Positions 12,237 to 56,497 of a stretch of 64,000 bases of DNA are shown here, in pieces (position 1 is the stretch's first letter; every line of letters begins with the position of its first letter). A program made the translations under genes and the position numbers. The notes beneath the pieces were generated by a model. The model was not told the DNA's origin and did no database searches. It worked only from the letters and a program-made list of their open reading frames with translations. This DNA comes from Eledone cirrhosa (lineage: Eukaryota). The stretch is from positions 243,598,001 through 243,662,000 of the forward strand of contig OZ024742.1 of assembly GCA_964016885.1 (NCBI GenBank). The letters run 5' to 3'.

Positions 12237-12270
<34 letters not shown>

Positions 12271-12280
12271 AATATATATA

Positions 12281-12336
<56 letters not shown>

Positions 12337-19669: not shown

Positions 19670-19704
<35 letters not shown>

Positions 19705-19707
<3 letters not shown>

Positions 19708-19900: not shown

Positions 19901-19919
19901 AGCATATATCGTCATCATC

Positions 19920-26655: not shown

Positions 26656-27250
26656 ATTGTTTCTACTTTTGGCACAAGGCCAGCAATTACCCAGTGCATT
26701 ACTGGTACTTTATTTTATCGACCCCGTAAGGATGAAAGGCAAAATTAACCTCGGCGGGATTTGAACTCAGATCGTAAAGGGACGTAACTATGCTGGAAAG
26801 CATGGCGTTCGACCCTCTACCGATACTGCCAATCCACCGCCCTTTCGATACAATAATTGTTTCTACTTTAGGCACAAGGCCAGCAATTACCCAGTGCATT
26901 ACTGGTACTTTATTTTATCGACCCCGTAAGGATGAAAGGCAAAGTCAACCTCGGCGGGATTTGAACTCAGATCGTAAAGGGACGTAACTATGCTGGAAAG
27001 CATGGCGTCCGACCCTCTACCGATACTGCCAATAATAATGGTTTCTTATATAGGTACAAGGCCAGTAATTTGGGGGGAAGGGAAAGTCGATTAAATCGAT
27101 CCCAGTGCGTGACTGGTACTTTATTATATCGACCCCGTAAGGATGAAAGGCAAAGCTAACCTCGGCTGGATTTGAATTCAGAACATAAAGGGCCGTAACT
27201 CTATGTGGTAAAAAATGTTGTCCGATACCCTTAATTGCGCCAAATGTTAA
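26640..27250 (-). mobile_element. Head-to-tail trimer of the ATT-tailed tRNA SINE
   Basis: Three units (about 27250-27033, 27030-26852, 26843-26640), each with a B-box GA(G/A)TTCAAATCC, body GCCTTTCATCCTTACGGGGTCGAT and tail GGCCTTGT(G/A)CC...AGAAAC(A/C)ATTATT. Confidence 0.9.
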
Positions 27251-27964: not shown

Positions 27965-29812
27965 CTTTATAATAATGAATAATGAAATTATTGTGTACAG
28001 TGCTCAGGTGCACTACAACTCATCAAAGGTGCATGTATAGTACATAGAATAATATACAAATGTCAGGGAAGTGAATAGTGTATGAGTCATGATATACATG
28101 TGTGCGTGTGTATGGAGGGGAAATATTAGGTGTAGTGTTGGCGAATCACAGGAAGCATGGAGGTTTTAAAGGACGCAGTGTCTCGATAGCTAATAACTGA
28201 TGCCGGGAGTCTGTTCCATGCTTCAGCAACTCTGAGCGTGAAAAAATGTTTCCGAATCATGGGAGCTGTGCTGTTTTCTGACTTTGTGTGTTAGACACAT
28301 GGAAATCAAAAAGGTACTCAGGGTTATTGTTGGCAAGATGGTTGTTACCAAGTCAGTTGCCAGACGTGGGAGCTTCAATGAATCCATGCCCAGGGAAGCA
28401 AGACGTTCAGAGTATGGTAGATGCCTGATGGAGGGTATTCGCTTGGTTGCACGTCTCTGAACAGTTTCCAAGCGGTCTCTTCTGAGCAAGATAGGGGTTC
28501 CAGACTGGTGATGCAAATTCTAAGTGTGGCCGCACCATAGCTATATACAGCTTTAAATAGATAGCTGGAGAGCGGCTGACAAAGTTCTTGCTGAGTGATG
28601 CTAAGATACCCTCGGCCTTCTTGACAATTTTAGAGGCGTGCTTCGTCCAACGCAAATCGCTGCTGACCGTAATGCCCAGGTCACGTTCACAAGAAGACTT
28701 CTTGATATTAGTGTTGTGGAGGGAGTATGTGGACGCTGGGTTTTTACTCACAAAATGCATGGTGGTACACGTGTCCACAGCCAGCTTGAGTTGCCAGTCT
28801 GTGATCCATTGTTGCATTGTGTCCAGCTCAGATTGCAAGCAAGATCTATAGTGTTCAGGATCTGTCCTTTTTATCTCAAGGTACAGCTTGATGTCATCTG
28901 CATATTTCAGTACTGTGGTATTCTTTAAGTTGGCATCTATGTCATTAATATATGCCACAAACAAAAGGGGGCCAAGAACAGATCCCTGTGGTACACCAGA
29001 TGACATTTCATATGGTGAGGAATGCTGTCCTAGAACCGTGACTACCTCTCTTCGACTGAGAATGAAGGACTTCAACCAGTTAAAAAGATTATCCTTCACA
29101 CCCATTGCAGAGAGTTTTGCCATAAGTCTTTTTTGTGGCACAGAATTGAAAGCTTTAGCAAAGTCAAGGTAAACAACATCCACCCATGAGCCGCCATCAG
29201 TGATCCGGGTGATGTATTCAAGAAACTCGATAAGTTGATCACAGCAGCTGGAGTTAGGGATAAATCCAAATTGCGAGGGCCGGATAAGACTGTGAGCGTT
29301 CCAGAAGTTCCATAGTGTTTCTCTGACACAGGATTCCATCAGTTTGGCAATGCAGCTAGTAAGACTGACTGGACGATAGTTCACTTGTGATGTGCGGTCA
29401 CCCTTTTTGAACAGAGGAATGACACTGGCAGTTTTCCACTGTTCTGGAGTAGCACCGTTGTTCAGTCAGAATTGGAAGAAGCATGATAGCTGGTGCAGAA
29501 TGAAGTACCCACCACGTTTGAGAAGCAGGTACGTAACACCATCAAGATCAGGAGAGGCATGGTTGCGTTTATTTTTAAGGTGACGTCGCAGTATTGCAGG
29601 TGTAAATTCCATAGTTGTAATAGAATCCGATGTCAGAGGTGGTGGAGACGGTACACTCTGGTCTTCAATAGTGAAAATGCTTGCATAGCATTCAACAATG
29701 AGTTCTGCGCATTGCTTGAAGTCGTCAGTAACCTGGCTTGTGTGGGGATTGCGAAGAGGACCAACAAGAGAGTGAGGCCTCTGCTTTGAGTGAACATACT
29801 TCCAGAACACCT
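27965..29812 (-). mobile_element. 5'-truncated CR1-group LINE (RT domain, frameshifted) with 3'UTR
   Basis: NYRPVSLTSC, QFGF, VVYLDFAKAFNSV, SGVPQGSVLGPLLF, YADD, ERDLGI, VRPHLEFASPVWNP, LETVQRRATK. Confidence 0.92.
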
Positions 29813-29947
29813 TACAGCATAAGTCTGCTTGATCAGAGTTGACTTGGGGTTAAAACAATAAATATAAAGAACATTTGGATAAATCAAATCACATAGCCTG
29901 ATGAAACGAGGGTATGGTGGAGGGGGATAGAAAGAGAGAGAGTGAGC

Positions 29948-30217: not shown

Positions 30218-30325
30218 TATTTTCCGTTGTGTTGTAATATAAATATTACACACAGTAGATTATCAGCTCACGTAGAGTTTGCTCGACGGTTCCAGTTGTA
30301 GTTCCAAAAGTAATCCGGAGAAAAA

Positions 30326-31065
30326 TAGAAAGATTTGAATGGATACAGTTTAGTTGAAAGGAATTTATTGACACGTGTTTCTATAACAGTTACATAACCT
30401 AAAACAGCTATCTACAAACTTTTAGTTATGCAGACATTCAATATTTCAATGTTATTATTTACTGTCATTTCATCAGAATAATATTACTGAGGACCTATTT
30501 AGTTTTTATAGAGAATATTAGGAGGGAGGGGTGAAGTTGTTAGAAGAATAGTTGAAGGAGTGGTTTTTCGATAGCAGTGAGAATTCTTGGTGGCAGTGAG
30601 TAATTAGATTCCCATCTGTTGTTTTGACATTTTTTATGGAATATATTATTGGTTATTTTTCTAAATCTATAGAAGGATTAGAGATAGTAAAGATATGCGT
30701 GGTTGGTTTTGTGTTTGCACTTAACATTCAGACTTAAATTTTTCTTTCAAGTGTACGTATTCTTTCACCCACGCATTCACACAAATATATTTGCACACCT
30801 CTACAAAATACATATACTCACAATTCACATATTCATACTTACATATATATACACATGCATACACATATATATACACACATGTATTCATGTACATACATAC
30901 GCGCTCATGTGTATACATTTTCATACTCAACTTATCTTTATATATACACACGTATAGACACACACATATATACATACATACTCTAGTCCATGTGTACACA
31001 CATACGCATACATACACATCCACATACACATACATACATACACATATATATATATATATATACAT

Positions 31066-31122: not shown

Positions 31123-31759
31123 CCCACACACACACATATACACATACACACATATATATATATATATATATAAGCACTTTAATACATGAATACACTTACA
31201 TCTAACTATACACATCAAACATATATATATATTTACTTATTTATATACATTTTCACATATATATACATACTTATGGACGTTTTTAGACACATTCATTATC
31301 GCATATTTGTACCTATTCTCATCAGCATATCTTTTCATTATTAGTATGGTAATTTAAGGTTATTAATATATGTTGAGAAGAGATTGTTTTTATATTTTTC
31401 TAACTAGATTAAGGTTTATATAGTTGGGGGATGTCCCTCTTTTATGTAATATTCGGCTTGTAGTGGGAAAAAAGGGTTTTAGTTCTGTGACGGCAGAATA
31501 ATGTTCGTTCAATTCTGTTATTCAGCAGTTTCTTCTTGTGTGTGATTATGTAACTTCACCCCTCCCTCCTAATATTCTCTATAAAAACTAAATAGGTCCT
31601 CAGTAATATTATTCTGATGAAATGACAGTAAATAATAACATTGAAATATTGAATGTCTGCATAACTAAAAGTTTGTAGATAGCTGTTTTAGGTTATGTAA
31701 CTGTTATAGAAACACGTGTCAATAAATTCCTTTCAACTAAACTGTATCCATTCAAATCT

Positions 31760-31765
<6 letters not shown>
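30326..31765. mobile_element. Approximately 205-bp inverted repeats (30326-30530 / 31559-31765) around a microsatellite-rich spacer; PLE-like
   Basis: The arms are reverse complements; CTGATGA-AATG...CATT-GAAA core at about 31614-31650; (TA)n outside the right arm. Confidence 0.65.
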
Positions 31766-32822: not shown

Positions 32823-33054
32823 TAAATTCCACCACTATCATATTCTGTACTTATTGCTCTCACTTAACCTTATTTCTTTATATTTCTATTATTTTGCCAT
32901 TTTCTTACTTTTTTACTGTATCTTTTTTCTTATCTTTTACTTTTTACATCTGTAACTTCTTTACCTATTTATCATATATATTTTATTATTGATGTTATTG
33001 TTTTGATTATACGCTATTTCTCTATATATATCTTGCCTTGTATGAATTACTTTT

Positions 33055-33163
33055 GTATTCTGAGGATTTGATCAGAGGTAGATGATGTAATGGAGATCGA
33101 GTGACGCAACCTCGAGCGATTAGACCTCTAGACTCACCTGATCAATGAAACAATTGTTAATAC
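33055..33163 (+). ncRNA. Hammerhead ribozyme with long branched stem II (PLE pLTR type)
   Basis: GTATT-CTGAGGA-t-TTGATCAG...CTGATCAA-t-GAAA-caattg-TT-AATAC, followed by AATAAA. Confidence 0.78.
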
Positions 33164-33423
33164 CTGAAATAAAGCCCCTTGTTGTACAGCCAACCATGTT
33201 ACTCTTCATTTCACTATTATTACTCCAAGTATAACCTACATAGGAATTACCGCAAACTCGCTGCCTAACTATGGAAACATCTTGTTGAGTCAAACAAAGC
33301 CGTACGTTAAAACTATCAACGGCGTAGAGTACTCACAACCTCTAACTGGATTACCTATAACGATAACTTGTTACCCCATATATATATAATCCTACGGGTT
33401 CATTCTGTCATTACCACAGCAGA

Positions 33424-33508
33424 AGTCCGATGAGTTCTTGATTCCAGAGTCGGGCTAGATCGATACAGATCGAACCTTGAGCTGATCAATAGCGAAACGC
33501 GCATCACT
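33424..33508 (+). ncRNA. Second, mutated hammerhead motif
   Basis: AGT-CCGATGA (U4>C)...GAAA-cgcgca-TC-ACT, followed by AATAAA. Confidence 0.5.
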
Positions 33509-33569
33509 ACTCAATAAACGTAATGAAGACATAACAAATCGTCCTTTTATTAATATTAGTACTATATAC

Positions 33570-35749
33570 CAAGGGGGATATAATCGATAATTTCAGGCCC
33601 ATAACCCTGCTAAACGCAGAGTTCAAGATTTTGGCCAAGGTGTTAGCAACGAGGTTGGCGCTTGTCGTCAAGGGTCTGGTGGGAGAGGCGCAGACATGCG
33701 CCATTCCGGACAGATCCATACACGACAACCTCCACCTCATGCGATACATCATAGAGAGGGTGGTTAAGGAACCTGGCACGGGTGGGGCCCTGATCAACTT
33801 GGATCAATCCAAAGCATTCGATAGGGTCGACCATCGGTACCTGGTGGCGGTCCTCGAGGCAGCCGGTTTCGGGCCCGTTTTCAGGGGTTGGATCGCAGCA
33901 ATGTACAGCGACATCTGCTCAGTTGTGAGGGTGAACGGTCACCTGTCGCAGCCGTTCAGCATCATGCGCTCAGTCCGCCAGGGTTGTCCCCTCTCGTCCC
34001 TCTTGTACGTATTGGCTCTCGAGCCGTTACTGCACAAACTGGGGGCGATGAGGGGCGTCCCACGCGAACTAGGATGCGGGAAATCCGAGTCGGCTTACGC
34101 TGACGACGTCACCGTGGTGGTGTCGAGCACCAGACACGTCCAGATGCTCGGCACCGCTCTCAAGGAATACGAAGCGGTGACAGGAGCAAAGATAAACCAG
34201 GAAAAGTCGGTGGGCTTGCAGCTCGGCACCTGGAGAGGCAAGTCCATGTCGTCCGACAGCGTCGTGGGGCGTTGGACGGACGGACCGGTTAAATTGCTCG
34301 GGGTCTGGTTCGGACCGGACCTCCAGATGGAGAAAAACTGGAACGAGGTGACGAGCAAGGTGGCCTCCCTCACCCAGAAATGGGCCGAGAGGAAGCTGTC
34401 CCTGAAAGGCCGGGCGGAGGTGGCGAATGCGAACATCGCATCTGTCATCTGCTACCGCCTCACCGTCGTCCCTTGCTCCAGCCCAACTCTCACCAAAATG
34501 GAGCGCCTCCTCCTCCGCTTTTTGTGGAAGGGACGCGCTCCCATGGTCAGACGATCCATCTGCTGTCAACACCCGTTGCGTGGAGGACTGGGCAATCCAT
34601 GGCTGATGATGCGCAAACATGCGCTGAGGCTGCGACATCTCTGGTGCTTCCTTGATGGTGAACAGGTGTGGTCGCCGTTCGCCAGGCACGTTTTCCCACA
34701 GCTCGTCTCCTTGACGGAGCTGCAGTTCTGGGTCAGAAAAAGACGGAGGGATGGCGCTTGGAAACTGGAATGTCTCCAGGCGCTCACTGCCCTCTGCCAG
34801 CTGGGCACCAGTATCGGTGGAACATCCACCTCGGCGTTCTATAGAGGACTAGTGGAGGGGAAGAGCGACAACATTCTCGGAGAGATCCTGGGCGTCGAAG
34901 AAGATCAGCTGTTTGTTCTCTTCCGGAGAACTTTCAGCCCGGGGCCTATGGATAACTTCCAAAAATCTCTGGCCTGGCAGTGCTACCGGAGAGCGCTGCC
35001 GGTTCGAGATAAGCTCTACAGGCACGGAAGTGCCGTCAGCCGAGCCTGTCCGAGATGCGCGCAGAGCGACGAAACCGTCGTGCACGCACTCGTTCAGTGC
35101 CCGAGCATTGCTGACTTGTGGAGCTGTCGAACAGTTGCTGTCGCGTGTAGGACTGATCCGGTTGTCGACTGAGTCCATTGTGCAGATGGTCTCGCCGTCT
35201 TCCTTCGAGGAGGAAGGGCAGGCGGTTTTCATCTGCCTGGTGGCCATGGCGAAAGAGATTGTATGGTGGACAAGGTTGAAAGGGTTAAAGACAGACACTT
35301 TCCTCTTCGGCGAATCCCTAATTAACTTTTTCAAGTTTCACTTGAAGAGGAACATCAGGGTGGAGAGGCAAGTGCTGCTTTCTAGCAAGTTTGTTGAAAG
35401 GTGGGTGAATATAGCGAGAATGGTCCGAGTGAACGGGACCGCTCTGAATATATGTCTGTAGTTTGAGAGATGGAAAAATTGAGAGAGGGCGCTTGCCCTG
35501 GTGGTCAGGGTGGCTGTGGTCTTTTGTGTGGTTTTCGCCACGAGTAACCCTCGGAGGTTTCCCCCCTATTGGGGAATTTTTCATTGTTTCAATTTTCATT
35601 TTTATTGTTTATATTTATGTTTCTATGTCCTTTTTTTTCTTTTCTTATATAAATAATAAAAATATTTACACGCACAAAACCCACATCGTACCGTCCTGTG
35701 CCGTCTGTAATGTTTTTCTTGATGTCAGCCCTTGTGGCCAATAAAGAAA

Positions 35750-35781
<32 letters not shown>
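33570..35781 (+). mobile_element. Tx1/L1-clade LINE copy 1: 5'-truncated, ORF2 frameshifted near 35125, (ATT)n tail
   Basis: Starts inside RT (NFRPITLLN); QGCPLS, YADD, CPRC...H...C finger; stop at 35461; AATAAA then (ATT)10. More divergent than copies 2 and 3 are from each other. Confidence 0.95.
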
Positions 35782-35990
35782 GGCGACCTACGTAGTAAAT
35801 CGTATCATCGTGAGCTCCGCAAAGGTTTGTTATTTCCGTTTGTTAAAAATTGCCATTTATGGAAAATTTTATTGTTAACTGTTTATAAGCATACATACAT
35901 TGTTTTCCGAAAAGGACACCCAAAAAGATTGGGGCCTTGTGCCCAAAATTTTAACTTTTATTATTATCAAAAAATTTCTTTTAAAAAAAA

Positions 35991-37983
35991 ATGGCTAATT
36001 CACCTCTGCAACAAGCAGCTGAAAGCCTTCCTCACAAATTAACACCTCACACCGACACCACCATTGTAAATGTTACTACGTTTGCCAACACAAAAAAAAA
36101 ATATAAGCAGTAGCAATATTTTAAATTTGTCTCAGGCAGACATTTATTTCCCGCCATTACCAATGACTGCAGGTGTTAAAGCCTCCACCACCACCACCAC
36201 CGCGACAACCACCACCCCCACCACCACCGCGACAACAGAAACAAAAGAAGAAGAAAATAAATTAACTCGTGATGTCGAAATGAAATCAAGCAAAATGGAC
36301 TCTTCCGCACCAAAGACGACTGACGTCACCACCACCACAACTGAAACTAAAATTAATATTAACGATAGCAACAACAACAACAATGACATTATAAAACCGA
36401 CCCTCAGTTTCGCCAGAGTAGCAAAACAATTCGAAGCTTGTACGGTAACTCAGGAGGATTTAGAAAATGCCAAACAAATGGTAAAGAAAGATGGGTACAG
36501 GGTCAGCCTCACCCCCCCCCCCCTACCTAATAAAATGGAGCATCGGCGCCTATGCACAGTGTCGTATAGAACAATAAATGTAAAATCGCGCCGAGTGGAA
36601 CAGGCATCCGAGTCCCAAATCCAAAAAGCTTTGGGACATGTGTGGGGAAGAAAAACCCACATTAGACGTGGGCAAAAGTATGGAACCGTGGACGTGTTCT
36701 TTGAAACACCAGAGGAGGCTAGAGAACACTCCATGGCCCCATTAAAAAGTGACGACTTCACACTCGTCCCAAGCTATTGTGGCCAGAGACTCGTAAAGAT
36801 CAGGGTGACCCACGTTCCACCGGCCATCGAAATTCCCTGGCTAATAGCGGCCGTCCTCGCCGGCATCGAAGCCAACACGAAAATAATAGCAGTAGCAAAA
36901 GAAAAGCAGGAAAACTAGTCCGGATCTGGGATGGAGCTCCTGATCCAAGCGGACCAAAAAAGCATTGAGGAGATCCCAGAGGTAATAGACCTCACTGACG
37001 GCAGCCACCTCACGGTAATTGTCGAGGGCAGAAGACCTAGGTGTGTCGTTTGTGGTGAAGGAACCCACCTAAGGGCTTTCTGCCCTCAGGCTAAAAGGTT
37101 GAGGCCACCTCTACTACCCACCCCAGTGACACAACCATCAACACCACCAGTAGCAGAGATGGCAGCAACAACTGTAGCAGCAACAACAGAAGCAACTATA
37201 ACAGTAACAACCCCAGCAACAGTAGCAAAACCAACACCACTACCACCACCAGCAAAACCAACACCACCACCACCCAACGCTTCAGAACTAGCACCAGCGC
37301 CTACACCATCCACCACACCACAACCAAAACTAACGGCTGTGGAGGATTTTCCACTCCCCGGCCTATCACAACTGGAGACAGATTGTGACGACGAGGAGTG
37401 GGAAACGATATCCGGAAATAAAAAAAGAAACCAAAAAAGAAAAAATTCTCTTCCTTCCCCCTCCAAAAACAAAATACAGAGGGAAACAAATAAACTAAGA
37501 AACAAAAAAGTTAGGACAGATATGCCACCATCCACACCAGCATCACCAACCCCATCAACCCAAACACCAACACCATCACCATCATTATCCCCAGCACCAC
37601 CATCACCTACACCACAAAAGTCACCAAAATGCGAAACAGAAACAAACCCACAACAAACGCAAACAAAACAAAACAACCAAAACGATACACACTACACAGC
37701 ATTAAATTTGAACAACAAGCAATTATTACACTACATCCAACACAACACCAGCATCACAGAAAAAGACTACACAACAACCCCAAAATTCACACCACCTCCA
37801 CACATACAAATCACTCGCATCACACAGAAAACGTACATGACACTAAAACAAAAATTCCCCAAAGACATCGGAGACTTCCGACAAGCACTCTCCAGGAGGA
37901 TTTATAAGGACATCCTTCCTGAGGAGGCCACAAGCAGTGAAAAGGATGGAAAAGCCGTCCTTCCCCTACGAGAAGTAAGGTAA
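35991..37983 (+). pseudogene. ORF1 of copy 2 (RRM-like, CCHC knuckle, Pro/Thr-rich), disrupted
   Basis: Inferred start ATGGCT at 35991, shift in the A-run at about 36092-36101, TAG at 36916-36918 (Trp in copy 3), KYGTVDVFF, CVVCGEGTHLRAFC (CX2CX4HX4C). Confidence 0.85.
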
Positions 37984-38017
37984 GTGGTCTTTCCCATCTT
38001 TTCCACTCCTTTTCAAC

Positions 38018-41000
38018 ATGGCCTCACTCAGAATAGGCAGCATAAATGCGCGTGGCTTGGGGTCGTCATGGAAGCAGGGTCACCTGCTCAACGACCTCAG
38101 GTCACTAAACATAGATGTAGTGGCCATCAGCGAGACCAGAATCTCCGAAGCACAGGCTTTCGCACCGATCTTCGGCGGCTACGATGTGTACGCATCTCCC
38201 AGCCGTCCGGGATCGGGGGGAGGAGTTGCTGTGCTTTTTCGAAGAGGTTTGGATCTTGCCATACGGGCCATCTTCCTGGACCCAGAAGGTAAGTTGGTGG
38301 TGCTGGACGTGACCAGCGGAGACGGGCAAGCTTTCAGGTTAGTGGCCGTCTATGCCCCGACAGGAGCAGGGCGGCCTGATTTCTTCCGGCGTCTGGAGAC
38401 CTTTCTTGGAACGTCCCGCTCTTTAGTGTTAGTGGGCGACTGGAACGGGATCTTAGATGCACGCTGGGATTGTGTGGGATTAGTGGATAGGGAAGGAGGG
38501 TGCAAGAGTCTCACCAACCTGCTCAGACGTTTTGAACTGTCTGACAGGTACCGAATGGATTTCCCGAATGTACCAATGTGGACTTGGACAAATCGCATAG
38601 GGTCATCCAGATCATATCTAGATAGAGTATTTTGTAGGGAAATAGATAGGTCTAGCATAGGCTGTCCACAATTCAAGATAGTCAGCTACACGGACCACAA
38701 ATTCGTGATCTGTGTGCTTGACTTAGATAGGCTTCATAGACGAAGACCCGGCTACTGGAAGTTAAACGCGTCCTTACCAGCGCGCAAGGCCTACAGAGAC
38801 CGGATTAGCGAGCTAGTTAAGCGGGCGTTGACGGGGGCCATCGTCAACAACAAGTGGTGGTTTGCTCTGAAAAGAGCAATTAGAATAGAGTCCATTAGGT
38901 TTAGTAAGACTTTAGCAATAGAGAAAAATAGAGCAGAGGGAGAATTAGTTAGAAAATTAGATGAGGCGCTTAGCAAAGGCATCGCGACCGACGTACTTGC
39001 GGCGAAATTGGCCCTTGGCCAATTCTTCAATGCAAAGCACGAAGGCTGCGTTGTCAGAGCTAGGGTGCGTGCTCTCAGACACGAGGGGACGAAAGCCGTT
39101 CAATGGGCCCGAGTGGCGGAGGCGCGTCGTGGCAACAAAGCCACGATCCGGTCTTTGGTGGACCACGACGGGCGCATGCTACTCGATCCCGGGCAAATGT
39201 GTGAAGCTTTTCAGCGACACTTCGCTCAACTGTTCGGGGGCAGTGGCGGGCCGGATCGAGGGATGGACTTTAGTGTCTACCTCGACGGACTGCCGCGGCT
39301 TTCGGCCACTGAGGTGGAGTGTTGCGAAAAGCCGATAACAACCGCTGAAGTACGGGATGCAATGACTAGTTGCACAAGGGGTAAATCGCCTGGTTTGGAT
39401 GGTCTGCCCTATGAACTTTACGTACAAATGCCAAACTTGTTCGGAGGCCTCTTGGCGGACGTCTACTGCAACTGGCAACAGAACGGGAGAATTCCCAGTT
39501 CTGTGAGCCGAGGAGCGGTGGCGCTGCTGAGAAAGGATCCGAACAAGGGGGATAACATAGATAATTTTAGGCCCATAACTCTGCTAAACACAGAGTTCAA
39601 GATTTTGGCCAAGGTGGTAGCAAAGAGGTTGGCGCTTGTCGTTGGTGGTCTGGTGGGAGAGGCACAGACATGCGCCATTCCCGACAGATCCATCCACGAC
39701 AACCTCCACCTCATGCGATACATCGTAGAGAGGGTAGCTAGGGAACCTGGCACGGGTGGGTCTTTGATCAATTTAGATCAGTCGAAAGCCTTCGATAGGG
39801 TCGACCATCGTTACCTAGCGGCAGTCCTGCGGGCGGCTGGCTTTGGGCCCGTCTTCAGAGGCTGGATCGCTGCCATGCACAGCGACATCTGCTCTGTAGT
39901 GAGAGTGAACGGTCACCTTTCGGAACCGTTCAACATCATGCGCTCGGTCCGCCAAGGATGTCCCCTCTCGTCCCTAATGTACGTATTGACTCTCGAGCCA
40001 TTACTGCACAAACTGGAGACGTTGAGGGGGGTCCCGCGCGAACTAGGATGCGGAAGATCCGTGTCAGCATATGCCGACGATGTCACCGTAGTGGTGTCGA
40101 ACGCCAAACACATCGAGGCGATCGGCACTACACTAAGAGAATACGAAGCGGTGACAGGAGCAATGATCAACCAGGAAAAGTCAGTGGGCCTGCAGCTCGG
40201 CACCTGGAGAGGCAGGTCCATGCTGTCCAACAGCGTCGTCGGGCGCTGGACGGACGGACCGGTTAAATTGCTAGGGGTCTGGTTCGGTCCAGACCTCCAG
40301 ACGGACAAAAACTGGGACGAGGTGACGAGCAGGGTGGCTTCTCTCACCCAGAAATGGGCCGAGAGGAAGCTATCCCTGAAAGGTCTAGCGGAGGGGGCTA
40401 ACGCGTACATCGCGTCCGTCATCTACTACCGCCTGACCGTCGTACCTTATCCTAAGCCCCGCCAGACTGCGCTGGAGCGTTTGCTCTTTCGCCTTTTGTG
40501 GAAGGGACGCGCTCCGATGGTCAGGCAGTCCATCTGCTGTCAACACCCGCTACGTGGAGAGCTGGGAATGCCGTGGCTGATGATGCGCAGACACGCGCTC
40601 ATGCTACGACATCTCCACCTCTTCCTCGACGTTGACCAGGTGTGGTCGCCATTTGCTAGACGCGTCTTTCCCCAGCTCGTCTCCTTGACGAAGCTACAGT
40701 CCTGGGTCAAGCGAAGACCGAGAGGGAGCGCTTGGAGACTGGAATGTCTTCAGGCGCTCACAGCCCTCGACCAATCGGGCAATGTGATCGGTGGAAACTC
40801 CACCTTGGCGTTCTATAGAGGATTAGTGGAGGGGAAGAGCGACGACGTATTTGGGGAAACTCTAGGCGTCGACGAAAATCAACTAGCCAATCTCTTCGGA
40901 AGAAATTTCGGGCCGGGGCCTATGGACAACTTCCAGAAACCCCTGGCCTGGCAGTGCTACCGAGGAGCTTTGCCAGTTCGGGATAAACTCTACAGGCATG

Positions 41001-41443
41001 GAGGTGCCGTCGGCCGGGCATGTCCGAGATGCGCGCAGGGCGACGAAACCGTCCTGCACGCACTCGTCCAGTGTCCGAGTATTGCTGACTTGTGGGTTTA
41101 TGTCGAACACCTGCTGTCGCGTGTAGGACGGATCCAGCTATCAGCTGAGTCCATCGTGAGGATTGCCCCGCCCTCTTCCTTTAGCCGGGAAGGGCAGGCA
41201 GTTTTTATCTGTCTCGTGGTGGCCATGGCGAAAGAGATAGTATGGTGGACACGTTTGAAAGGGCTGAAGACGAGCATTTACCTCTTCGGTGATGCCCTGA
41301 TTAACATTTTTAAATTTATTTCATTTGAAAAGGAAAATCAGGGTAGAGGGGAAGTGCTCTCTTCCCAGCATTTTGCTGAAAGATGGGTGAGAGAGGCAAG
41401 AATGGCCCGAGTGAATGGGCCTTCTCTGAGTATGTGTCTGTAA
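38018..41443 (+). CDS. ORF2 of copy 2: AP endonuclease, reverse transcriptase, C-terminal zinc finger
   Basis: SINARGL, AISET, GDWN, YLDR, TDH (APE); KSPGLDG, FRPITLLN, KAFDRV, QGCPLS, YADD; CPRC-X8-H-X4-C. Compensating indels near 41315-41350. Confidence 0.95.
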   Translation: MASLRIGSINARGLGSSWKQGHLLNDLRSLNIDVVAISETRISEAQAFAPIFGGYDVYASPSRPGSGGGVAVLFRRGLDLAIRAIFLDPEGKLVVLDVTSGDGQAFRLVAVYAPTGAGRPDFFRRLETFLGTSRSLVLVGDWNGILDARWDCVGLVDREGGCKSLTNLLRRFELSDRYRMDFPNVPMWTWTNRIGSSRSYLDRVFCREIDRSSIGCPQFKIVSYTDHKFVICVLDLDRLHRRRPGYWKLNASLPARKAYRDRISELVKRALTGAIVNNKWWFALKRAIRIESIRFSKTLAIEKNRAEGELVRKLDEALSKGIATDVLAAKLALGQFFNAKHEGCVVRARVRALRHEGTKAVQWARVAEARRGNKATIRSLVDHDGRMLLDPGQMCEAFQRHFAQLFGGSGGPDRGMDFSVYLDGLPRLSATEVECCEKPITTAEVRDAMTSCTRGKSPGLDGLPYELYVQMPNLFGGLLADVYCNWQQNGRIPSSVSRGAVALLRKDPNKGDNIDNFRPITLLNTEFKILAKVVAKRLALVVGGLVGEAQTCAIPDRSIHDNLHLMRYIVERVAREPGTGGSLINLDQSKAFDRVDHRYLAAVLRAAGFGPVFRGWIAAMHSDICSVVRVNGHLSEPFNIMRSVRQGCPLSSLMYVLTLEPLLHKLETLRGVPRELGCGRSVSAYADDVTVVVSNAKHIEAIGTTLREYEAVTGAMINQEKSVGLQLGTWRGRSMLSNSVVGRWTDGPVKLLGVWFGPDLQTDKNWDEVTSRVASLTQKWAERKLSLKGLAEGANAYIASVIYYRLTVVPYPKPRQTALERLLFRLLWKGRAPMVRQSICCQHPLRGELGMPWLMMRRHALMLRHLHLFLDVDQVWSPFARRVFPQLVSLTKLQSWVKRRPRGSAWRLECLQALTALDQSGNVIGGNSTLAFYRGLVEGKSDDVFGETLGVDENQLANLFGRNFGPGPMDNFQKPLAWQCYRGALPVRDKLYRHGGAVGRACPRCAQGDETVLHALVQCPSIADLWVYVEHLLSRVGRIQLSAESIVRIAPPSSFSREGQAVFICLVVAMAKEIVWWTRLKGLKTSIYLFGDALINIFKFISFEKENQGRGEVLSSQHFAERWVREARMARVNGPSLSMCL

Positions 41444-41933
41444 ATTAAAGGTGGAAAACTGGGAGAGGGCACTTGCCCTAGTGGTCAGGGTCACTGTGGC
41501 TTTTTAATGGGCTTTCTCCACGAATGTCTCTTGGAGGTCTCCCCCCATATTGGGGAATTTTTTCATTGTTCTATTATTACATCCTCTGTTTCTTGTTTTT
41601 TTTTACACGCAGAAATGCCCTTTTGTACCCTCCTGTATTGTCCTGTACTGTCCTTAATGTCTACTTTATGTAAACCCTTGTGGTTAATAAAGAAAACATT
41701 ATTATTATTATTATTATTGAATGCCATGGTTGACGGAGGCTCGGCTCTGTAAGGTATAGTAATTTTTAACCGTTAAAACAATTGTAAATTGTTTAAAACT
41801 TGAACCAAATTGTTGATAAAGACACCCTCCTCCTCGTGAGAGGGGTCTTTCTGTCCGTTATTTGGCCCTTCGGGGTTAAATAACCAGTTATTGGGGTTTT
41901 GTACCCAAAATTTCATTTTAAACAAAAAACAAC

Positions 41934-44039
41934 ATGGCTACGAAAAAGAAATTTCATACGTCACTCCCACTCATTCCGTCTTCTTCTTCCTCAATCATCA
42001 CTACAGCAGAGAGAAGATTGTCTCTCTCCCTCCCTTCTTTAAATGTGTCTCTCTCCCTCCCTTCTCTTTCGCAAGTGACGAAAGAAAAGAAAAGTCTCGT
42101 GCAAAGCGTGCAAGGTTTCTCTACGACGACAGCGACGAAACAGGTGTGCGGGAAATACGAAAACCCAGTTCATTCGTCTGACGTCAGGAATAATAGCAGT
42201 AGCAGCCGTAATAACAACAGCAACAGTGACAATGAAAACAACAGTAGCAGCCGCAACAGCATCACCAGCAGCATAAACAACAACAGCATTAGCAGCAGCA
42301 ACACCAACAACAACCACAGCAACAGCGGCGGAGGCAGTAGTCGTAGTACCTGCAGCAACAACAAAAGTACCAGCAGCTCTGACGACAACAACAACAGCAG
42401 AGAAAAACCAATCTCATTTGCAGGTATTGCGAAAAACTTGGAAACAATCCTCATAACAAATGAGGAATTAGAGGAAGCGAAGAAGATGGTGACAAAGAAC
42501 GGACACCGAGCAATCTGCAAGGCAGCGGAAAAATTTTTCGAAACCCAAGAGCACTGTACGGTCACGTACCGTACAGTAAGTACAAAATCCCGTAGGGTGG
42601 AAAGAGCCACAGAGGCCCAAATACAAAAAGCCTTGGGGTCTGTGTGGCAGCGGAAAACGCACATCACCCGAGGCAAAAAATATGCCACCGTAGACGTACT
42701 TTTTGCCACACCCCAGGAGGCAAAGGCCCAATCAGTAGTGACCCTAAGGAGCGAGGAAATGGTGTTGGTGCCCTCCTACTGCGGGCAAAAAATTGTGAGG
42801 GTCAAACTGACCCACGTCCCCCCCCCCCCCCCCCCCCCCCCCCGGAATGACCCCTTCTTGGCTGGCCGCGTCTGTCCTCGTCGGAATCGAGGACAAAACA
42901 ACTGTACTGCAAGTACAGAAAAAAGTAAGAGAAGATTGGGTCGGCTCCTCCATTGAGATGCTAATCCAAACCAACCAGGAGTGCATCGAAGCTATCCCGG
43001 ATGTGATAGACTTCGATAACGGCACTCAACTGCCCATAAGTGTTGAGGGCAAACGCCCGAAATGCTTTCGCTGTGGATCGAAGACTCACCTCAGGGCCTT
43101 CTGCAACGAGAAGACCCTGAGAAAGGAGAAAACCCCCCTCCTTCCGAATCCGGCTCCACGGCTACCAGCAACAGGACAAGCGGCAACCAGGAACGATAGG
43201 TCCGTGGCACCCATACCCACTCCACGGAAATCAAAAACAGCAGCAGTGGAAATATTAACAACAACAACAGCAATACCAAATGCAGCTGCAACAGAGACTC
43301 CAGTAAAACATCACCAACAACAACAAGTGAAAGAGTGGAGCTGGTACCCCTCCCCGACCTCACAGAATCAGACATGGAGTGTGAGGTGGGAGAGGGATGG
43401 CAAAAGGTCGCAAGAAGGCACAAACGCAGAAGCAGCGCATCGTCGCCTTTGAAAAGGGAGGAAAGAAATGAGAAAAGGGTAAAGTCTACTGCAAAGAGAC
43501 CCACAGCAGCAACACTACCAACACCATCACCACCCACACCAGCACCACCATCACCACCGGCGACAACCCCACCGCCAACAACACCTTCAACACCACCACC
43601 ACAAGCACCAACATCGCAAACACAACAACAAAACACACACACCCAGCAACAACGACAAGAAAATAGCAGAACCACACCCCACCCCCAGAAAAACAAATGC
43701 ACGGCAATAAACACACACAACAAGAAACTAATGACTTACATAATTGAACACACAGACATTTCACAACAGGACTACATAATACCAGCACCAATCAAAACGC
43801 CAACTAACATAAGACTGCTAAAAATAGCACAGAAACAATACACAAACATTAAAACGAAATTCCCCAACGCAGTTGGTGATTTCAGGGACCTAGGAGGAAC
43901 CATCAATCGAAGAGTATATTCAGACATTCTCTTAGAAGAGCCGACGACCAGCCGAAGGGACGATTCAACGGTCCCTTCACCAGACGATCAAGTGAAAAGG
44001 GATGTAAAAACCATCCCTCCTCTACCAAAAGTACGGTAA
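41934..44039 (+). pseudogene. ORF1 of copy 3 (Ser/Asn-rich N-terminus, RRM-like, CCHC knuckle, Pro/Thr-rich) in three frames
   Basis: Frameshifts at the poly-C run (about 42818-42843, possibly a sequencing error) and near 43310-43340; KYATVDVLF, CFRCGSKTHLRAFC. Confidence 0.85.
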
Positions 44040-44074
44040 GTGGTCTTTCCCATCTTTTCCACTCTATTTTAAAC

Positions 44075-47000
44075 ATGACCTCACTCAGAATAGGCAGCAT
44101 AAATGCGCGTGGCTTGGGGTCGTCATGGAAGCAGGGTCACCTGCTCAACGACCTCAGGTCACTAAACATAGATGTAGTGGCCATCAGCGAGACCAGAATC
44201 TCCGAAGCACGGGCCTTCGCACCGATCTTCGGCGGCTACGATGTGTACGCATCTCCCAGCCGTCCGGGATCGGGAGGAGGAGTTGCTGTGCTTTTTCGGA
44301 GAGGTTTGGATCTCGCCATACGGGCCATCTTCCTGGACCCAGAGGGTAAGCTGGTGGTGCTGGACGTGACCAGCGGAGACGGGCAAGCTTTCAGGCTAGT
44401 GGCCGTCTATGCCCCGACAGGAGCAGGGCGGCCTGATTTCTTCCGGCGTCTGGAGACCTTTCTTGGAACGTCCCGCTCTTTAGTGTTAGTGGGCGACTGG
44501 AACGGGATCTTAGATGCACGCTGGGACTGTGTGGGATTAGCGGATAGGGGTGGAGGGTGCAAGAGCCTCACCAACCTGCTCAGGCGTTTTGAACTGTCTG
44601 ACAGGTACCGATTGGATTTCCCGAATGTGCCAATGTGGACTTGGACAAACCGTATAGGGTCATCCAGATCATATCTAGATAGAGTATTTTGTAGGGAAAT
44701 AGATAGGTCTAGCATAGGCTGTCCACAATTCAAGATAGTCAGCTACACGGACCACAAATTCGTGACCTGTGTGCTTGACTTAGATAGGCTTCATAGACGA
44801 GGACCCGGCTACTGGAAGCTAAACGCGTCCTTACCAGCGCGCAAGGCCTACAGAGACCGGATTAGCGAACTAGTTAAGCGGGCGTTGACGGGGGCCATCG
44901 TCAACAACAAGTGGTGGTTTGCTCTGAAAAGAGCGATTAGAATAGAATCGATTAGGTTTAGTAAGGCTTTAGCAATAGAGAAAAATAGAGCAGAGGGAGA
45001 ACTAGTTAGAAAATTAGACGAGGCGCTTAGCAAAGGCATTGCGACCGACGTGCTTGCGGCGAAATTGGCCCTTGACCAATTCTTCAATGCAAAGCACGAA
45101 GGCTGCGTTGTCAGAGCTAGGGTGCGTGCTCTCAGACACGAGGGGACGAAAGCCGTTCAATGGGCCCGAGTGGCGGAGGCGCGTCGTGGCAACAAAGCCA
45201 CGATCCGGTCTTTGGTGGACCACGACGAGCGCATGCTACTCGATCCCGGGCAAATGTGTGAAGCTTTTCAGCGACACTTTGCTCAGCTGTTCGGGGGCAG
45301 CGGGGGGCCGGGTAGAGGGATGGACTTTAGTGTCTACCTCGACGGACTGCCGCGGCTCTCGGCCACTGAGGCGAAGTGTTGCGAAAAGCCGATAACAGCC
45401 GCTGAAGTAAGGGAGGCAATGACTGGCTGCACAAGGGGTAAATCGCCTGGTTTGGATGGTCTGCCCTATGAACTTTACGTACAGATGCCAGACTTGTTCG
45501 GAGGCCTCTTGGCGGACGTCTACTGCAACTGGCAACAGAACGGGAGAATTCCCAGTTCTGTGAGCCGAGGAGCGGTGGCACTGCTGAGAAAGAATCCGAA
45601 CAAGGGGGATAACATAGATAATTTTAGGCCCATAACTCTGCTAAACACAGAGTTCAAGATTTTGGCCAAGGTGCTAGCAAAGAGGTTGGCGCTTGTCGTT
45701 GGTGGTCTGGTGGGAGAGGCGCAGACATGCGCCATTCCCGAGAGATCCATCCACGACAACCTCCACCTCATGCGATACATCATAGAGAGGGTAGCTAAGG
45801 AACCTGGCACGGGTGGGTCCTTGATCAATTTAGATCAATCGAAAGCTTTCGATAGGGTCGACCATCGTTACCTAGCGGCAGTCCTGAGGGCGGCTGGCTT
45901 TGGGCCCGTCTTCAGAGGCTGGATCGCTGCCATGCACAGCGACATCTGCTCTGTGGTGAGAGTGAACGGTCACCTGTCGGAACCGTTCAACATCATGCGC
46001 TCGGTCCGCCAAGGATGTCCCCTCTCGTCCCTCTTGTACGTATTGACTCTCGAGCCATTACTGCACAAACTGGAGACGTTGAGGGGAGTCCCGCGCGAAC
46101 TAGGATGCGGAAGATCCGTGTCAGCATATGCGGACGATGTCACCGTAGTGGTGTCGAACGCCAAACACATCGAGGCGATCGGCACTACACTAAGAGAATA
46201 CGAAGCGGTGACAGGAGCAATGATCAACCAGGAAAAGTCGGTGGGCCTGCAGCTCGGCACCTGGAGAGGCAGGTCCATGCCGTCCAACAGCGTCGTCGGG
46301 CGCTGGACGGACGGACCGGTTAAATTGCTCGGGGTCTGGTTCGGTCTGGACCTCCAGACGGACAAAAACTGGGACGAGGTGACGAGCAGGGTGGCTTCTC
46401 TCACCCAGAGATGGGCCGAGAGGAAGCTATCCCTGAAAGGTCGAGCGGAGGTGGCTAACGCGTACATCGCGTCTGTCATCTGCTACCGCCTAACCGTCGT
46501 ACCTTGTCCTAAGCCTCGCCTGACTGCGCTGGAGCGTTTGCTCTTTCGCTTTTTGTGGAAGGGACGTGCTCCGATGGTCAGGCGGTCCATCTGTTGTCAA
46601 CACCCGCTACGTGGAGGGCTGGGCATGCCGTGGCTGATGATGCGCAGGCACGCGCTCAGGCTACGACATCTCCACCTCTTCCTCGACGGTGATCAGGTGT
46701 GGTCGCCGTTTGCTAGACGCGTTTTTCCCCAGCTCGTTTCCTTGACGGAGCTGCAGTCCTGGGTCAAGCGAAGACCGAGAGGGAGCGCCTGGAGACTGGA
46801 ATGTTTTCAGGCGCTCACAGTCCTCGACCAATCGGGCAATGTGATCGGTGGAAACTCCACCTCGGCGTTCTATAGAGGATTAGTGGAGGGGAAGAGCGAC
46901 GACGTACTTGGGGAAACTCTAGGCGTCGACGAAAATCAACTAGCCAAACTCTTCGGAAGAACTTTCGGGCCAGGGCCTATGGACAACTTCCAGAAATCTC

Positions 47001-47494
47001 TGGCCTGGCAGTGCTACCGAGGAGCCTTGCCAGTTCGGGATAAACTCTACAGGCATGGAGGTGCCGTCAGCCGGGCATGTCCGAGATGCGCGCAGGGCGA
47101 CGAAACCGTCCTGCACGCACTCGTCCAGTGTCCGAAAATTGCTGACTTGTGGGTTTATGTCGAAAACCTGCTGTCGCGTTTAGGACGGATCCGGCTATCA
47201 TCTGAGTCCATCGTGAGGATTGCCCCGCCCTCCTCCTTTAGCCGGGAAGGGCAGGCAGTTTTTATCTGCCTGGTGGCCATGGTGAAAGAGATAGTATGGT
47301 GGACACGTTTGAAAGGGCTGAAGACGAGCACTTACCTCTTCGGTGATGCTCTGATTGACTTTTTCAAATTTCATTTGAAAAGGAAAATCAGAGTAGAGAG
47401 GGAAGTGCTCTCTTCCCAGCATTTTGTTGAAAGATGGGTGAGAGAAGCAAGAATGGCCCGAGTGAATGGGCCTACTCTGAGTATATATCTGTAA
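44075..47494 (+). CDS. ORF2 of copy 3: intact APE-RT-ZnF, 1139 aa
   Basis: All motifs listed for copy 2 are present, with no disruptions. Confidence 0.96.
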   Translation: MTSLRIGSINARGLGSSWKQGHLLNDLRSLNIDVVAISETRISEARAFAPIFGGYDVYASPSRPGSGGGVAVLFRRGLDLAIRAIFLDPEGKLVVLDVTSGDGQAFRLVAVYAPTGAGRPDFFRRLETFLGTSRSLVLVGDWNGILDARWDCVGLADRGGGCKSLTNLLRRFELSDRYRLDFPNVPMWTWTNRIGSSRSYLDRVFCREIDRSSIGCPQFKIVSYTDHKFVTCVLDLDRLHRRGPGYWKLNASLPARKAYRDRISELVKRALTGAIVNNKWWFALKRAIRIESIRFSKALAIEKNRAEGELVRKLDEALSKGIATDVLAAKLALDQFFNAKHEGCVVRARVRALRHEGTKAVQWARVAEARRGNKATIRSLVDHDERMLLDPGQMCEAFQRHFAQLFGGSGGPGRGMDFSVYLDGLPRLSATEAKCCEKPITAAEVREAMTGCTRGKSPGLDGLPYELYVQMPDLFGGLLADVYCNWQQNGRIPSSVSRGAVALLRKNPNKGDNIDNFRPITLLNTEFKILAKVLAKRLALVVGGLVGEAQTCAIPERSIHDNLHLMRYIIERVAKEPGTGGSLINLDQSKAFDRVDHRYLAAVLRAAGFGPVFRGWIAAMHSDICSVVRVNGHLSEPFNIMRSVRQGCPLSSLLYVLTLEPLLHKLETLRGVPRELGCGRSVSAYADDVTVVVSNAKHIEAIGTTLREYEAVTGAMINQEKSVGLQLGTWRGRSMPSNSVVGRWTDGPVKLLGVWFGLDLQTDKNWDEVTSRVASLTQRWAERKLSLKGRAEVANAYIASVICYRLTVVPCPKPRLTALERLLFRFLWKGRAPMVRRSICCQHPLRGGLGMPWLMMRRHALRLRHLHLFLDGDQVWSPFARRVFPQLVSLTELQSWVKRRPRGSAWRLECFQALTVLDQSGNVIGGNSTSAFYRGLVEGKSDDVLGETLGVDENQLAKLFGRTFGPGPMDNFQKSLAWQCYRGALPVRDKLYRHGGAVSRACPRCAQGDETVLHALVQCPKIADLWVYVENLLSRLGRIRLSSESIVRIAPPSSFSREGQAVFICLVAMVKEIVWWTRLKGLKTSTYLFGDALIDFFKFHLKRKIRVEREVLSSQHFVERWVREARMARVNGPTLSIYL

Positions 47495-47742
47495 ATTAAA
47501 GGTGGAAAACTGGGAGAGGGCACTTGCCTTGGTGGTCAGGGTCATTGTGGCTTTTTACTGGGCTTTCTCCACAAATGTCCCTCCGAAGTCTGCCCCCTAT
47601 TAGGGAATTTTTCATTGTTATTTTTTGTTACATCCTCTGTTTTTGTTTTTTACACGCAGAAATGCCCATTTGTACCGTCCTGCATTGTCCTGCACTGTCC
47701 TTAATGTCTACTTTATGTAAACCCTTGTGGTTAATAAAGAAA

Positions 47743-47780
<38 letters not shown>

Positions 47781-47782
47781 AA

Positions 47783-47976
47783 GAGCGGTGGATTGGTAGT
47801 ATCAGTAGCGCGTCAGACACCATGCTTTGCAGCATAGAGTTATGGCTCTTTAATTCTAAGTTCAAATCCCGCCGAGGTTAACTTTGCCTTTCATCCTTAC
47901 GGGGTCGATAAAATAAAGTACCAGTAATGCACTGGGTAATTGCTGGCCTTGTGCCAAATATAGAAACAATTATTAT
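47783..47976 (+). mobile_element. ATT-tailed tRNA SINE a few bases after the tail of LINE copy 3
   Basis: A-box TGGTAGTATCAG, B-box GTTCAAATCC, body GCCTTTCATCCTTACGGGGTCGATAAAATAAAGTACCAG, tail TGGCCTTGTGCCA...AGAAACAATTATT. Confidence 0.9.
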
Positions 47977-47983
47977 CATAGTA

Positions 47984-48195
47984 TCTATACATATATATAA
48001 AACTGAAATTGTATTTGTGTGTGTGTGTGTATGTGTGTGTGTGTCATATTTTTTGCAAAGTCTATTCAAATCTACATTTCTACTCCGATTGACTTCAAAC
48101 TTGCATTTATATATTCCTTGCGGTCTAAAGATATTAACTGCAGCTTTTATTTTTCAATTTTCTGTTGTTAAAGGCATGTTAGGCGCCGGTTAGCG
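47984..48195 (+). mobile_element. Probable Helitron 5' fragment
   Basis: A|TCTATACATATATATAAAA start, (GT)n, CCGATTGACTTCAAACTTG motif resembling non-autonomous Helitron 5' regions. Confidence 0.45.
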
Positions 48196-48270
48196 ATCTC
48201 TCTCTCTCTCTCTCTTTCTTGGTCTGTCTTTTTAAATAGATACATAGCTATAACGTCGCGCCCTTATAAT

Positions 48271-48449
48271 TGTTTCTACTTTAGGCACAAGGCCAGCAAT
48301 TATCCAGTGCATTACTGGTATTTTATTTTATCGACCCCGTAAGGATGAAAGGCAAAGTCAACCTCGGCGGGATTTGAACTCAGATCGTAAAGGGACGTAA
48401 CTATGCTGGAAAGCATGGCGTCCGACCCTCTACCGATACTCCCAATCCA
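48271..48449 (-). mobile_element. ATT-tailed tRNA SINE with 9-bp TSD
   Basis: CCTTATAAT at 48262-48270 and 48450-48458; near-identical to the units at 26640-27030. Confidence 0.88.
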
Positions 48450-48682
48450 CCTTATAATATATGTCTGCATTACGACATCATGAAAACATTGTTCTCATTG
48501 CTGACGTATTATCTTCGCTATTTTCCGTTCATTGCCAGGAACGTCTTCACGAACCAAAGTATCGTCTTCCTGTTTTCCTTCGGTTGCAACGTTTTTCGAT
48601 TGATTTTTTTAGTTTCAGAAGATGTCGTTAAGGGTGAAAGCAGCGATTCTTTGCTTAAACTTTAATCTGTTGTTTTAATATA

Positions 48683-56305: not shown

Positions 56306-56497
56306 ATAATAATTGTTTCTACTTTTGGCACAAGGCCAGCAATTATATCCCAGTGTATTACTGGTACTTTATTTTATCGACCCCGTAAGGATGAAAGGCA
56401 AAGTTAACCTTGGCGCGATTTGAACTCAGAATGGAAAGGGCCATAACTCTATGCGTCAAAGCATGGCGTCCGACCCTCTACCGCTACTGCAATCCAA
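56306..56497 (-). mobile_element. ATT-tailed tRNA SINE
   Basis: Same head, body and tail; flanked by ATTATT on both sides on the - strand. Confidence 0.88.

Follow-up and report, generated by a model that had tools for sequence, protein, structure and literature searches.

How can two neighbouring copies of one retrotransposon carry nearly the same second open reading frame (ORF2) behind very different first ones (ORF1)? A 64,000-nucleotide stretch of the Eledone cirrhosa genome (GenBank assembly GCA_964016885.1, contig OZ024742.1, positions 243,598,001 to 243,662,000, forward strand; hereafter the window, whose own numbering we use) raises this question. Self-comparison of the window revealed three head-to-tail copies, all on the plus strand, of one type of long interspersed element (LINE), probably an L1-group non-LTR (long terminal repeat) retrotransposon. 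Copy 1 (33570-35781) is 5'-truncated inside the reverse transcriptase (RT) domain, while copies 2 (35782-41718) and 3 (41719-47779) are whole; all three terminate in AATAAA...(ATT)n. Copies 2 and 3 share a young module, made up of the last 14-15 codons of ORF1, the spacer, ORF2 and the 3' untranslated region (UTR), behind 5'UTRs and ORF1s that diverged anciently. One of the two copies is hence a recombinant, likely of copy 3's lineage.

One young module behind two diverged ORF1s

The shared part is delimited by BLAST, which aligns 37936-41718 with 43991-47765 at 95.4% identity over 3788 columns. ORF2 occupies 38018-41443 in copy 2 (1141 residues) and 44075-47494 in copy 3 (1139 residues, intact). 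Between them, 1071 of 1139 aligned residues are identical; 50 of the 68 differences fall in the first 1061 positions, and a short frameshifted patch near 41306-41348 of copy 2 affects about 11 residues. At the nucleotide level there are 113 differences in 3179, and a maximum-likelihood codon model gives a synonymous divergence (dS) of 0.071, with dS values of 0.05 and 0.10 rejected, and a dN/dS ratio (omega; dN, non-synonymous divergence) of 0.33. The 3'UTRs with their (ATT)n tails (41444-41718, including AATAAA, and 47495-47779) are identical at 229 of 256 positions (89%).

Upstream, the picture is very different. The 5'UTRs (35782-35990, 209 nt, beginning directly after the (ATT)n tail of copy 1, and 41719-41933, 215 nt) match at only 129 of 234 positions, with a single motif before the ATG rising above shuffles. 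ORF1 (35991-37983 in copy 2, 41934-44039 in copy 3) has a Thr-rich N-terminus in copy 2 and a Ser/Asn-rich one in copy 3, followed in both by a core of two RNA-recognition motifs (RRMs) and a CCHC knuckle (at about 36406-37089 in copy 2), and, in copy 2, by a Pro/Thr linker and a conserved C-terminal block. The cores agree at 119 of 224 residues, or 100 of 170 when ungapped (53-59%). Under the same type of codon model, core dS is 5.3, dN 0.29 and omega 0.055; the likelihood profile rejects a dS of 2.0 (2dlnL 6.6) and accepts values from 3 to 20, which puts the lower bound above 2. Third positions are identical in 71 of 170 codons of the ORF1 core and in 1001 of 1061 codons of ORF2 (Fisher p=4e-57).

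Silent sites in ORF2 are not frozen but free to diverge, since copy 1, which has about 82% nucleotide identity to copies 2 and 3 and served as the ORF2 outgroup, differs from copy 3 by a dS of 0.48 in the RT and C-terminal region. Protein trees (quick trees of 87 RT rows and 101 ORF1-core rows, the latter including the 99 of 149 database matches that were long enough) give the same contrast, with copies 2 and 3 separated by 0.039 changes per column for RT and 0.76 for the ORF1 core. A silent-divergence gap of about 30-fold or more points to recombination, as one transcript alone cannot carry it, and the saturation of ORF1 silent sites excludes fast protein evolution as its cause.

The two ORF1s are nevertheless relatives. 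They are colinear homologues, including the conserved C-terminal block, and sisters in the ORF1 tree (SH-aLRT support 95). As they are each other's nearest ORF1 among representatives at 50% identity, the donor of the foreign ORF1 was probably a related family rather than an alien one. Each ORF1 has two breaks: a frameshift at an A10 run (36092-36101) and a TAG at 36916 in copy 2, and frameshifts at a C26 run (42818-42843) and between about 43300 and 43335 in copy 3. All but the TAG are frameshifts that lie in or close to homopolymer runs and may be sequencing errors; both ORF1s therefore look recently functional.

These results bear out the core of the original prediction, namely that recombination swaps 5'UTR-ORF1 modules on one RT module: dS is about 5.3 in ORF1 and 0.071 in ORF2, rather than similar in both. 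Its estimate of roughly 55 residue differences plus a patch in ORF2 was close to our count, and its description of a similar 3'UTR, a very divergent 5'UTR-ORF1 and contrasting Thr-rich and Ser/Asn-rich regions was accurate. It had also described the ORF1s as sharing only blocks, which understates their colinearity, and as old lineages; they are old in divergence but, with a core omega of 0.055 and two breaks each, not fossils.

The ORF2 differences themselves carry information on timing. They are biased towards silent changes (62.5 of 800 synonymous sites vs 51.5 of 2383 non-synonymous sites, p=1e-11), giving a dN/dS of 0.27-0.33, and so the two ORF2s diverged partly while replicating. Because this divergence took place under purifying selection, the swap did not occur between these two neighbours. 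Using copy 1 for comparison, 34 changes are private to copy 2 (14 silent, 20 replacement) and 13 to copy 3 (6 and 7), a significant difference (p=0.003, 11 changes unpolarised) that fits copy 2 being the older insertion. Taken alone, the private changes show a weak silent bias (p=0.04 and 0.10). Differences cover the whole of ORF2, the longest identical tract (152 nt) being as long as chance predicts; a 132-nt identical tract at the start of ORF2 was considered as a sign of recent crossover and rejected (P=0.61).

The 5'UTRs yielded two further observations. Both contain a TTGGGG...CCCAAAATTT motif and an A-rich run before the ORF1 ATG (35927-35973 and 41889-41929; 0 of 1000 shuffles). An origin of the copy 2 5'UTR from a short interspersed element (SINE) was also considered, and the match was weak (12 of 1000 shuffles).

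The seam and the doubled terminal unit

Judging from codon third positions, the seam lies at about 37936 in copy 2 and 43992 in copy 3, 14-15 codons 5' of the ORF1 stop. The two copies match at 32/62 third positions in the C-terminal block and at 4/14 over the following 14 codons, then at 13/14 over the final 14. The onset of identity is stepped, with a 43-nt shoulder containing 9 differences (37936-37978) followed by a 29-nt identical tract (37979-38007). It had been predicted that identity begins abruptly at about 37975/44031 and that a template switch took place at the ORF1 stop. The first claim is replaced by this stepped onset; of the second, the fit of the junction to a template switch survives, as an interpretation, while the seam is placed before the stop rather than at it.

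At the seam, a 42-nt unit that occurs once in copy 2 (37936-37980, the start of the shared module) is present twice in copy 3. The older unit, u1 (43950-43991), is colinear with copy 3's own ORF1, whereas the younger, u2 (43992-44036), matches the copy 2 unit and has the putative seam at its 5' edge. Against the copy 2 unit, u1 is identical at 21/42 positions (third positions 7/14) and u2 at 30/42 in frame, or 34/43 with one indel (third positions 12-13/14). The two units of copy 3 are themselves alike at 20/42 positions (shuffles mean 11, P=0.0024). At the junction, copy 3 reads CAAG/TGAAAAGG and copy 2 reads GCAG/TGAAAAGG at the corresponding place (the slash marks the boundary). Beyond the seam, the ORF1 stop of each copy lies within a GGTAAGT motif resembling a splice donor, followed by a spacer that is pyrimidine-rich in copy 2 (37979-38017 in copy 2, 44035-44074 in copy 3).

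The ORF1 tail is also longer in copy 3. Past a conserved FP..[VI]G block, copy 2 has 42 residues and copy 3 has 59, an excess of 17; among 149 homologues examined, six of the seven with this block have tails of 32-42 residues. Unit u1 ends in DQ, compared with DQGK in the homologue P0093 and EGKS in the homologue P0090. Read most simply, in copy 3's lineage a complete foreign 5'UTR-ORF1 was joined, one unit out of register, to the recipient's own unit, stop, spacer and ORF2.

All three terminal units contain a hairpin in one codon register. It has a 6-bp core in copy 2 (arms 37942-37947 and 37957-37962), a perfect 8-bp stem in u1 (43954-43961/43971-43978) and a perfect 7-bp stem in u2 (43998-44004/44012-44018). 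In the 6-bp core, 18 of 18 cells are paired, with two pairs changed on both sides, compared with 28-56% in slid controls; random-mutation nulls gave P=0.0025 for u1 and 0.03 for u2, and the background rate of such a stem in both ORF1s is 8 in 3898 windows. A 31-pair stem across the copy 2 stop (z -2.9) was considered as a conserved element and dropped; it is not the best fold of copy 3 and is not exceptional for the element, and the local hairpin is therefore preferred.

The RNA of ORF2 (38018-41443, 44075-47494 and 33571-35460) is more stable than dinucleotide shuffles throughout (mean z -1.3 to -1.8), with 9 of 37-38 windows below z -3 in copies 2 and 3, and neither the ORF1s nor the other RT of the window have such an excess.

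Routes to the chimera

We consider it probable, if far from certain, that copy 3's lineage was made when RT, at the hairpin near the end of ORF1, switched template to RNA from a related family active at the same time. RT would first copy the 3'UTR, ORF2, the spacer and its own terminal unit u2. It would then jump to where the donor's ORF1 ends, by way of a short AG-type microhomology, landing just after the donor's own u1 and thus one unit out of register. The product would have an entire foreign promoter and ORF1, with the stop supplied by the recipient. Finally, two ORF2 lineages would replicate apart until their silent sites differed by about 7%, and both would then insert into the (ATT)n tails of the array. 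A short AG microhomology beside a hairpin suits such a switch, and RT template switching is the favoured route for co-active mouse L1 families (PMC3600994). The chimera would be viable since L1 ORF1s and ORF2s can be exchanged without loss of function, human-mouse ORF1/ORF2 chimeras being able to retrotranspose in culture (PMC3091869).

Several observations weigh against this account. The switch is our inference, and the junction fits splicing or a DNA-level join as well. Unit u2 differs from the copy 2 unit at 9 of 43 nucleotides, largely at codon positions one and two; this exceeds the rate in ORF2 (p=2e-5 at 3.6%, 0.006 at 8%). A single event does not explain the excess, which needs either a second crossover, later and slightly further downstream, or rapid local change, as in a dispensable tail constrained by RNA structure. 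One homologue, P0087, likewise has a tail of 59 residues. Just two full copies were compared, and scans of bacterial and archaeal contigs found no third ORF1 linked to an ORF2, so the direction of the swap and the status of the chimera as a family rest on parsimony. As for the hairpin, its tests were post hoc and are confounded by conserved codons, and a shuffle control on the three rows was not significant (98 of 500). In copy 2 ORF2, 9 of 38 windows fold below z -3 relative to shuffles; with so many stable windows, the stem at the seam is not exceptional by energy.

The closest rivals are two, each of them unlikely in our judgement. In the first, a read-through transcript of the tandem array was spliced, joining a donor at the end of an upstream ORF1 to a cryptic AG acceptor within the ORF1 end of an element further downstream, and then reverse transcribed. 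G/GTAAGT is a splice-donor consensus, and the ORF1 stops of copies 2 and 3 both lie within it. The donor part of copy 3 ends 43 nt past the start of its unit (CAAG/), and the AG/GTAAGT cut site of copy 2 is at 44 nt; this agreement to within 1 nt makes splicing a live rival. Moreover, the base in copy 2 that matches the start of the shared part follows CAG/, the homologue endings DQGK and EGKS are compatible with GGTAAG at that place, the elements are arranged head to tail, and trans-splicing has been proposed for some L1 chimeras (10.1101/2025.02.02.635956). However, the GT after u1 is deduced rather than seen, copy 2 offers a purine-rich acceptor context in which several AGs occur within the last 15 nt, and an AG serves equally well as microhomology for a template switch.

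The same motif has a second potential use. In both copies, a GTAAGT donor-like motif, a pyrimidine tract and a CTCAG in ORF2 codons 4-5 (37980-38031 and 44036-44088) delimit a GT-AG segment of 52 or 53 nt, whose removal would fuse ORF1 to ORF2 in frame, an agreement of frame that has a one-in-three chance. A bolder version of the splicing route, which we rate as rather improbable, is that a conserved hairpin and donor motif at the ORF1 end form a built-in module joint in octopod LINEs of this presumably Tx1-like kind, that splicing of read-through transcripts from (ATT)n-stacked arrays yields new, viable ORF1-ORF2 pairings, and that copy 3 was made in this way. If true, the spliceosome would drive both the shuffling of LINE modules and the expression of ORF2, as the same donor could also excise the 52-53 nt intron and fuse ORF1 to ORF2.

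The second of these rivals, also doubtful, is a join at the DNA level, either by insertion of a 5'-truncated young copy into the end of an older ORF1 or by a deletion fusing the ORF1 and ORF2 of tandem neighbours. Tandem arrays are present at this locus, an insertion or microhomology-mediated deletion leaves an out-of-register join with a doubled unit, and such joins have been proposed for ORF1 shuffling in CR1/L2 (PMC4120745). On the other hand, the seam falls at precisely a point that leaves the two ORFs entire. Each ORF1 is nearly intact, and the breaks, apart from one TAG, are frameshifts at or close to homopolymers, which points to active donors. The target looks like (ATT)n, and the seam has no ATT run. 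This route has also been discounted for rodent L1 (PMC3600994).

It seems less credible that the swap ran in the reverse direction, the u1-u2 duplication being old and native to this ORF2 lineage and copy 2 having recruited its ORF1 by a join at u2. Long tails do exist, as in P0087, but two events are then required instead of one, and the copy 2 tail length is the family norm. The 31-pair stem between unit and spacer in copy 2 also argues against it, as copy 3 breaks 5 of the pairs and changes 2 more that are yet paired. Finally, it is very improbable that there was no swap and that neighbouring ORF2s were homogenised in place by gene conversion or assembly, or ORF1 merely evolved fast: although the copies are adjacent and the frameshifts at homopolymers are suggestive of long-read errors, copying in place with later decay would give a dN/dS near 1 rather than the value observed, conversion or collapse fits poorly with differences spread along the full length of ORF2, a longest identical tract expected by chance and 34 and 13 private changes, and fast protein evolution is unable to raise dS about 30-fold or more.

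Identity, surroundings and significance of the element

ORF2 of both copies matches Pfam PF03372, PF00078 and PF13966 above cut-off, in the layout of an N-terminal APE endonuclease, RT and C-terminal zinc-binding region (zf-RVT). Its best solved match is human L1 ORF2p (E 1e-50, residues 5-854), followed by R2 (1e-21), a comparison limited by the lack of full ORF2s from most other LINE clades in the PDB. The bicistronic ORF1-ORF2 organisation, simple-repeat 3' tail and 5' truncation (copy 1) are those of the L1 group. The element may be Tx1-like, judging from its architecture and simple-repeat junctions; the other rows of the RT tree are all unnamed or uncharacterised.

For ORF1, no Pfam family scored above cut-off. 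Its core is predicted to fold into two beta-alpha-beta-beta-alpha-beta domains and a CCHC knuckle (pLDDT 88), and the knuckle was also matched. Foldseek ranks tandem-RRM proteins as the top matches of the model (E 2.5e-5); the first domain aligns with the RRMs of La and FIR in VIA-align (Z 8.0-8.4, root-mean-square deviation 2.4-3.3, 80-82 aligned), and the second matches ferredoxin-like folds in general. On this predicted structure, ORF1 is of type I, which Khazina and Weichenrieder defined by at least one RRM directly upstream of a CCHC knuckle (PMC4120745).

Homologues with a named source point to octopods. A word-seeded search with the ORF1 core gave no match among 2332 candidates; an exhaustive one gave 342 representatives at E<=0.001. 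Of 15 distinct ORF1 homologues looked up, all nine with a named organism come from Octopus sinensis, O. vulgaris, O. bimaculoides or Argonauta hians. The closest named ORF2 homologues, from Argonauta and O. bimaculoides, are 58-60% identical, setting aside P0241, a 68% identical ORF2 fragment labelled as a protein of a bacterial metagenome-assembled genome, which probably reflects host DNA contaminating that assembly. No relative of the element turned up in scans of bacterial and archaeal genome contigs. No fused ORF1-ORF2 protein was found (0 of the 150 listed ORF1 matches also match ORF2), and cluster look-ups linked no database ORF1 homologue to an ORF2 homologue. The predicted host proteins P0096, P0105, P0134 and P0205 have pieces of the ORF1 family joined to them, for instance behind an astacin-like domain; these may be gene-model artefacts or exonisation.

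Copies 2 and 3 each start immediately 3' of (ATT)n, while the 5' flank of copy 1, which retains RT, zf-RVT, 3'UTR and an (ATT)10 tail, is merely loosely ATT-like; no clean target-site duplication was found at the three copies. Directly after the tail of copy 3 lies an abundant SINE-like repeat of about 196 nt with its own (ATT)n tail (47780-47975, plus strand), with relatives at 26651-27225, 48266-48451, 56307-56496, 59633-59827 and 61531-61682. End-anchored comparisons show a resemblance between its last 25 nt and the LINE 3' end (copy 1 vs the 59633 copy, 0 of 2000 shuffles; 87 of 2000 with copy 3), while unanchored tests were not significant. It may be a SINE partner of this LINE group.

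Overall, the window consists of AT-rich animal DNA in which microsatellites and SINEs occur. It includes a second, decayed and 5'-truncated LINE on the minus strand (about 27975-29850, PF00078 match, ATT-like tail), presumably CR1/L2-like from its motifs, and a mariner/Tc1-type transposase fragment (54186-54800, plus strand, PF01359, E 7e-16). A perfect 214-nt inverted repeat, with arms at 30325-30538 and 31552-31765 about 1 kb apart, is possibly a young miniature inverted-repeat transposable element or DNA transposon. About five copies of a 112-nt unit, 98% alike, form a tandem array at 16879-17448 and are related to dispersed repeats at 19674-19901 and 61925-62133. Several kb of (TA)n/ATAT-type simple repeat, with GC near zero, lie within 58-12855. 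An Rfam scan of 33000-48600 gave three matches, all far under the gathering score.

The recruitment of 5' modules is known from rodent L1, and ORF1 transfer from CR1/L2; what sets this case apart is the depth of the ORF1 split and the likely seam that is still visible. As in mouse L1MdTf and L1MdGf, a young ORF2-3'UTR is joined to the 5'UTR-ORF1 of another family, with divergence that is discordant across the breakpoint (here, dS 5.3 vs 0.071). Sookdeo et al. (2013) place the mouse breakpoints near the ORF1/ORF2 border, close to the 5' end of ORF2, and list RT strand switching among the proposed routes (PMC3600994). However, the mouse parents amplified within a few million years of each other and their breakpoints are inside ORF2 (PMC3600994), whereas our ORF1s are saturated at silent sites and the seam falls within the end of ORF1, at a doubled terminal unit. 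Mouse ORF1 is also built differently, as coiled coil-RRM-CTD (C-terminal domain) rather than RRM-RRM-CCHC. In CR1/L2, too, whole ORF1s, including type I, move between lineages while ORF2 remains tree-like (Metcalfe and Casane, 2014, PMC4120745). That study compares clades from Repbase entries; here the copies are neighbours with 95% ORF2 identity, in an L1-group element whose seam is readable to a few bases.

Other L1-group elements offer further parallels. Kibi, Koshi and their crocodilian Tx1 relatives are animal LINEs that insert into simple repeats, sequential insertion giving tandem copies (Kojima, 2015, PMC4494074), but their targets are (TC)n, (TTC)n, (TTCC)n and (TTTC)n rather than (ATT)n, which is also the tail of our element. 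The main text of that paper contains no occurrence of ORF1, and an octopus LINE paper (PMC9115989) none of Tx1. Non-mammalian vertebrate L1s similarly include many coexisting divergent families with short 5'UTRs (Boissinot and Sookdeo, 2016, PMC5381506). The same account gives no evidence of 5'UTR replacement in the L1 of fish, frog or lizard clade 2, whereas in this invertebrate element the 5'UTR and ORF1 were replaced together. We found no description of this octopod element or its junction in the literature, a search separate from Repbase, Dfam and supplements, and the family may already be catalogued.

One ORF2 machinery behind two ORF1s that are saturated at silent sites supports the modularity of ORF1 and ORF2 outside mammals. 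It also means that family trees and ages based on RT can misdescribe half of an element. Both parents are probably still in the genome, and with a seam readable to a few bases, the three routes long proposed for mosaic LINEs (a DNA join, an RNA/DNA heteroduplex and RT strand switching) and the splice route are all testable. The ORF1-end hairpin and donor motif, in turn, offer a tangible starting point for asking how a bicistronic RNA expresses ORF2.

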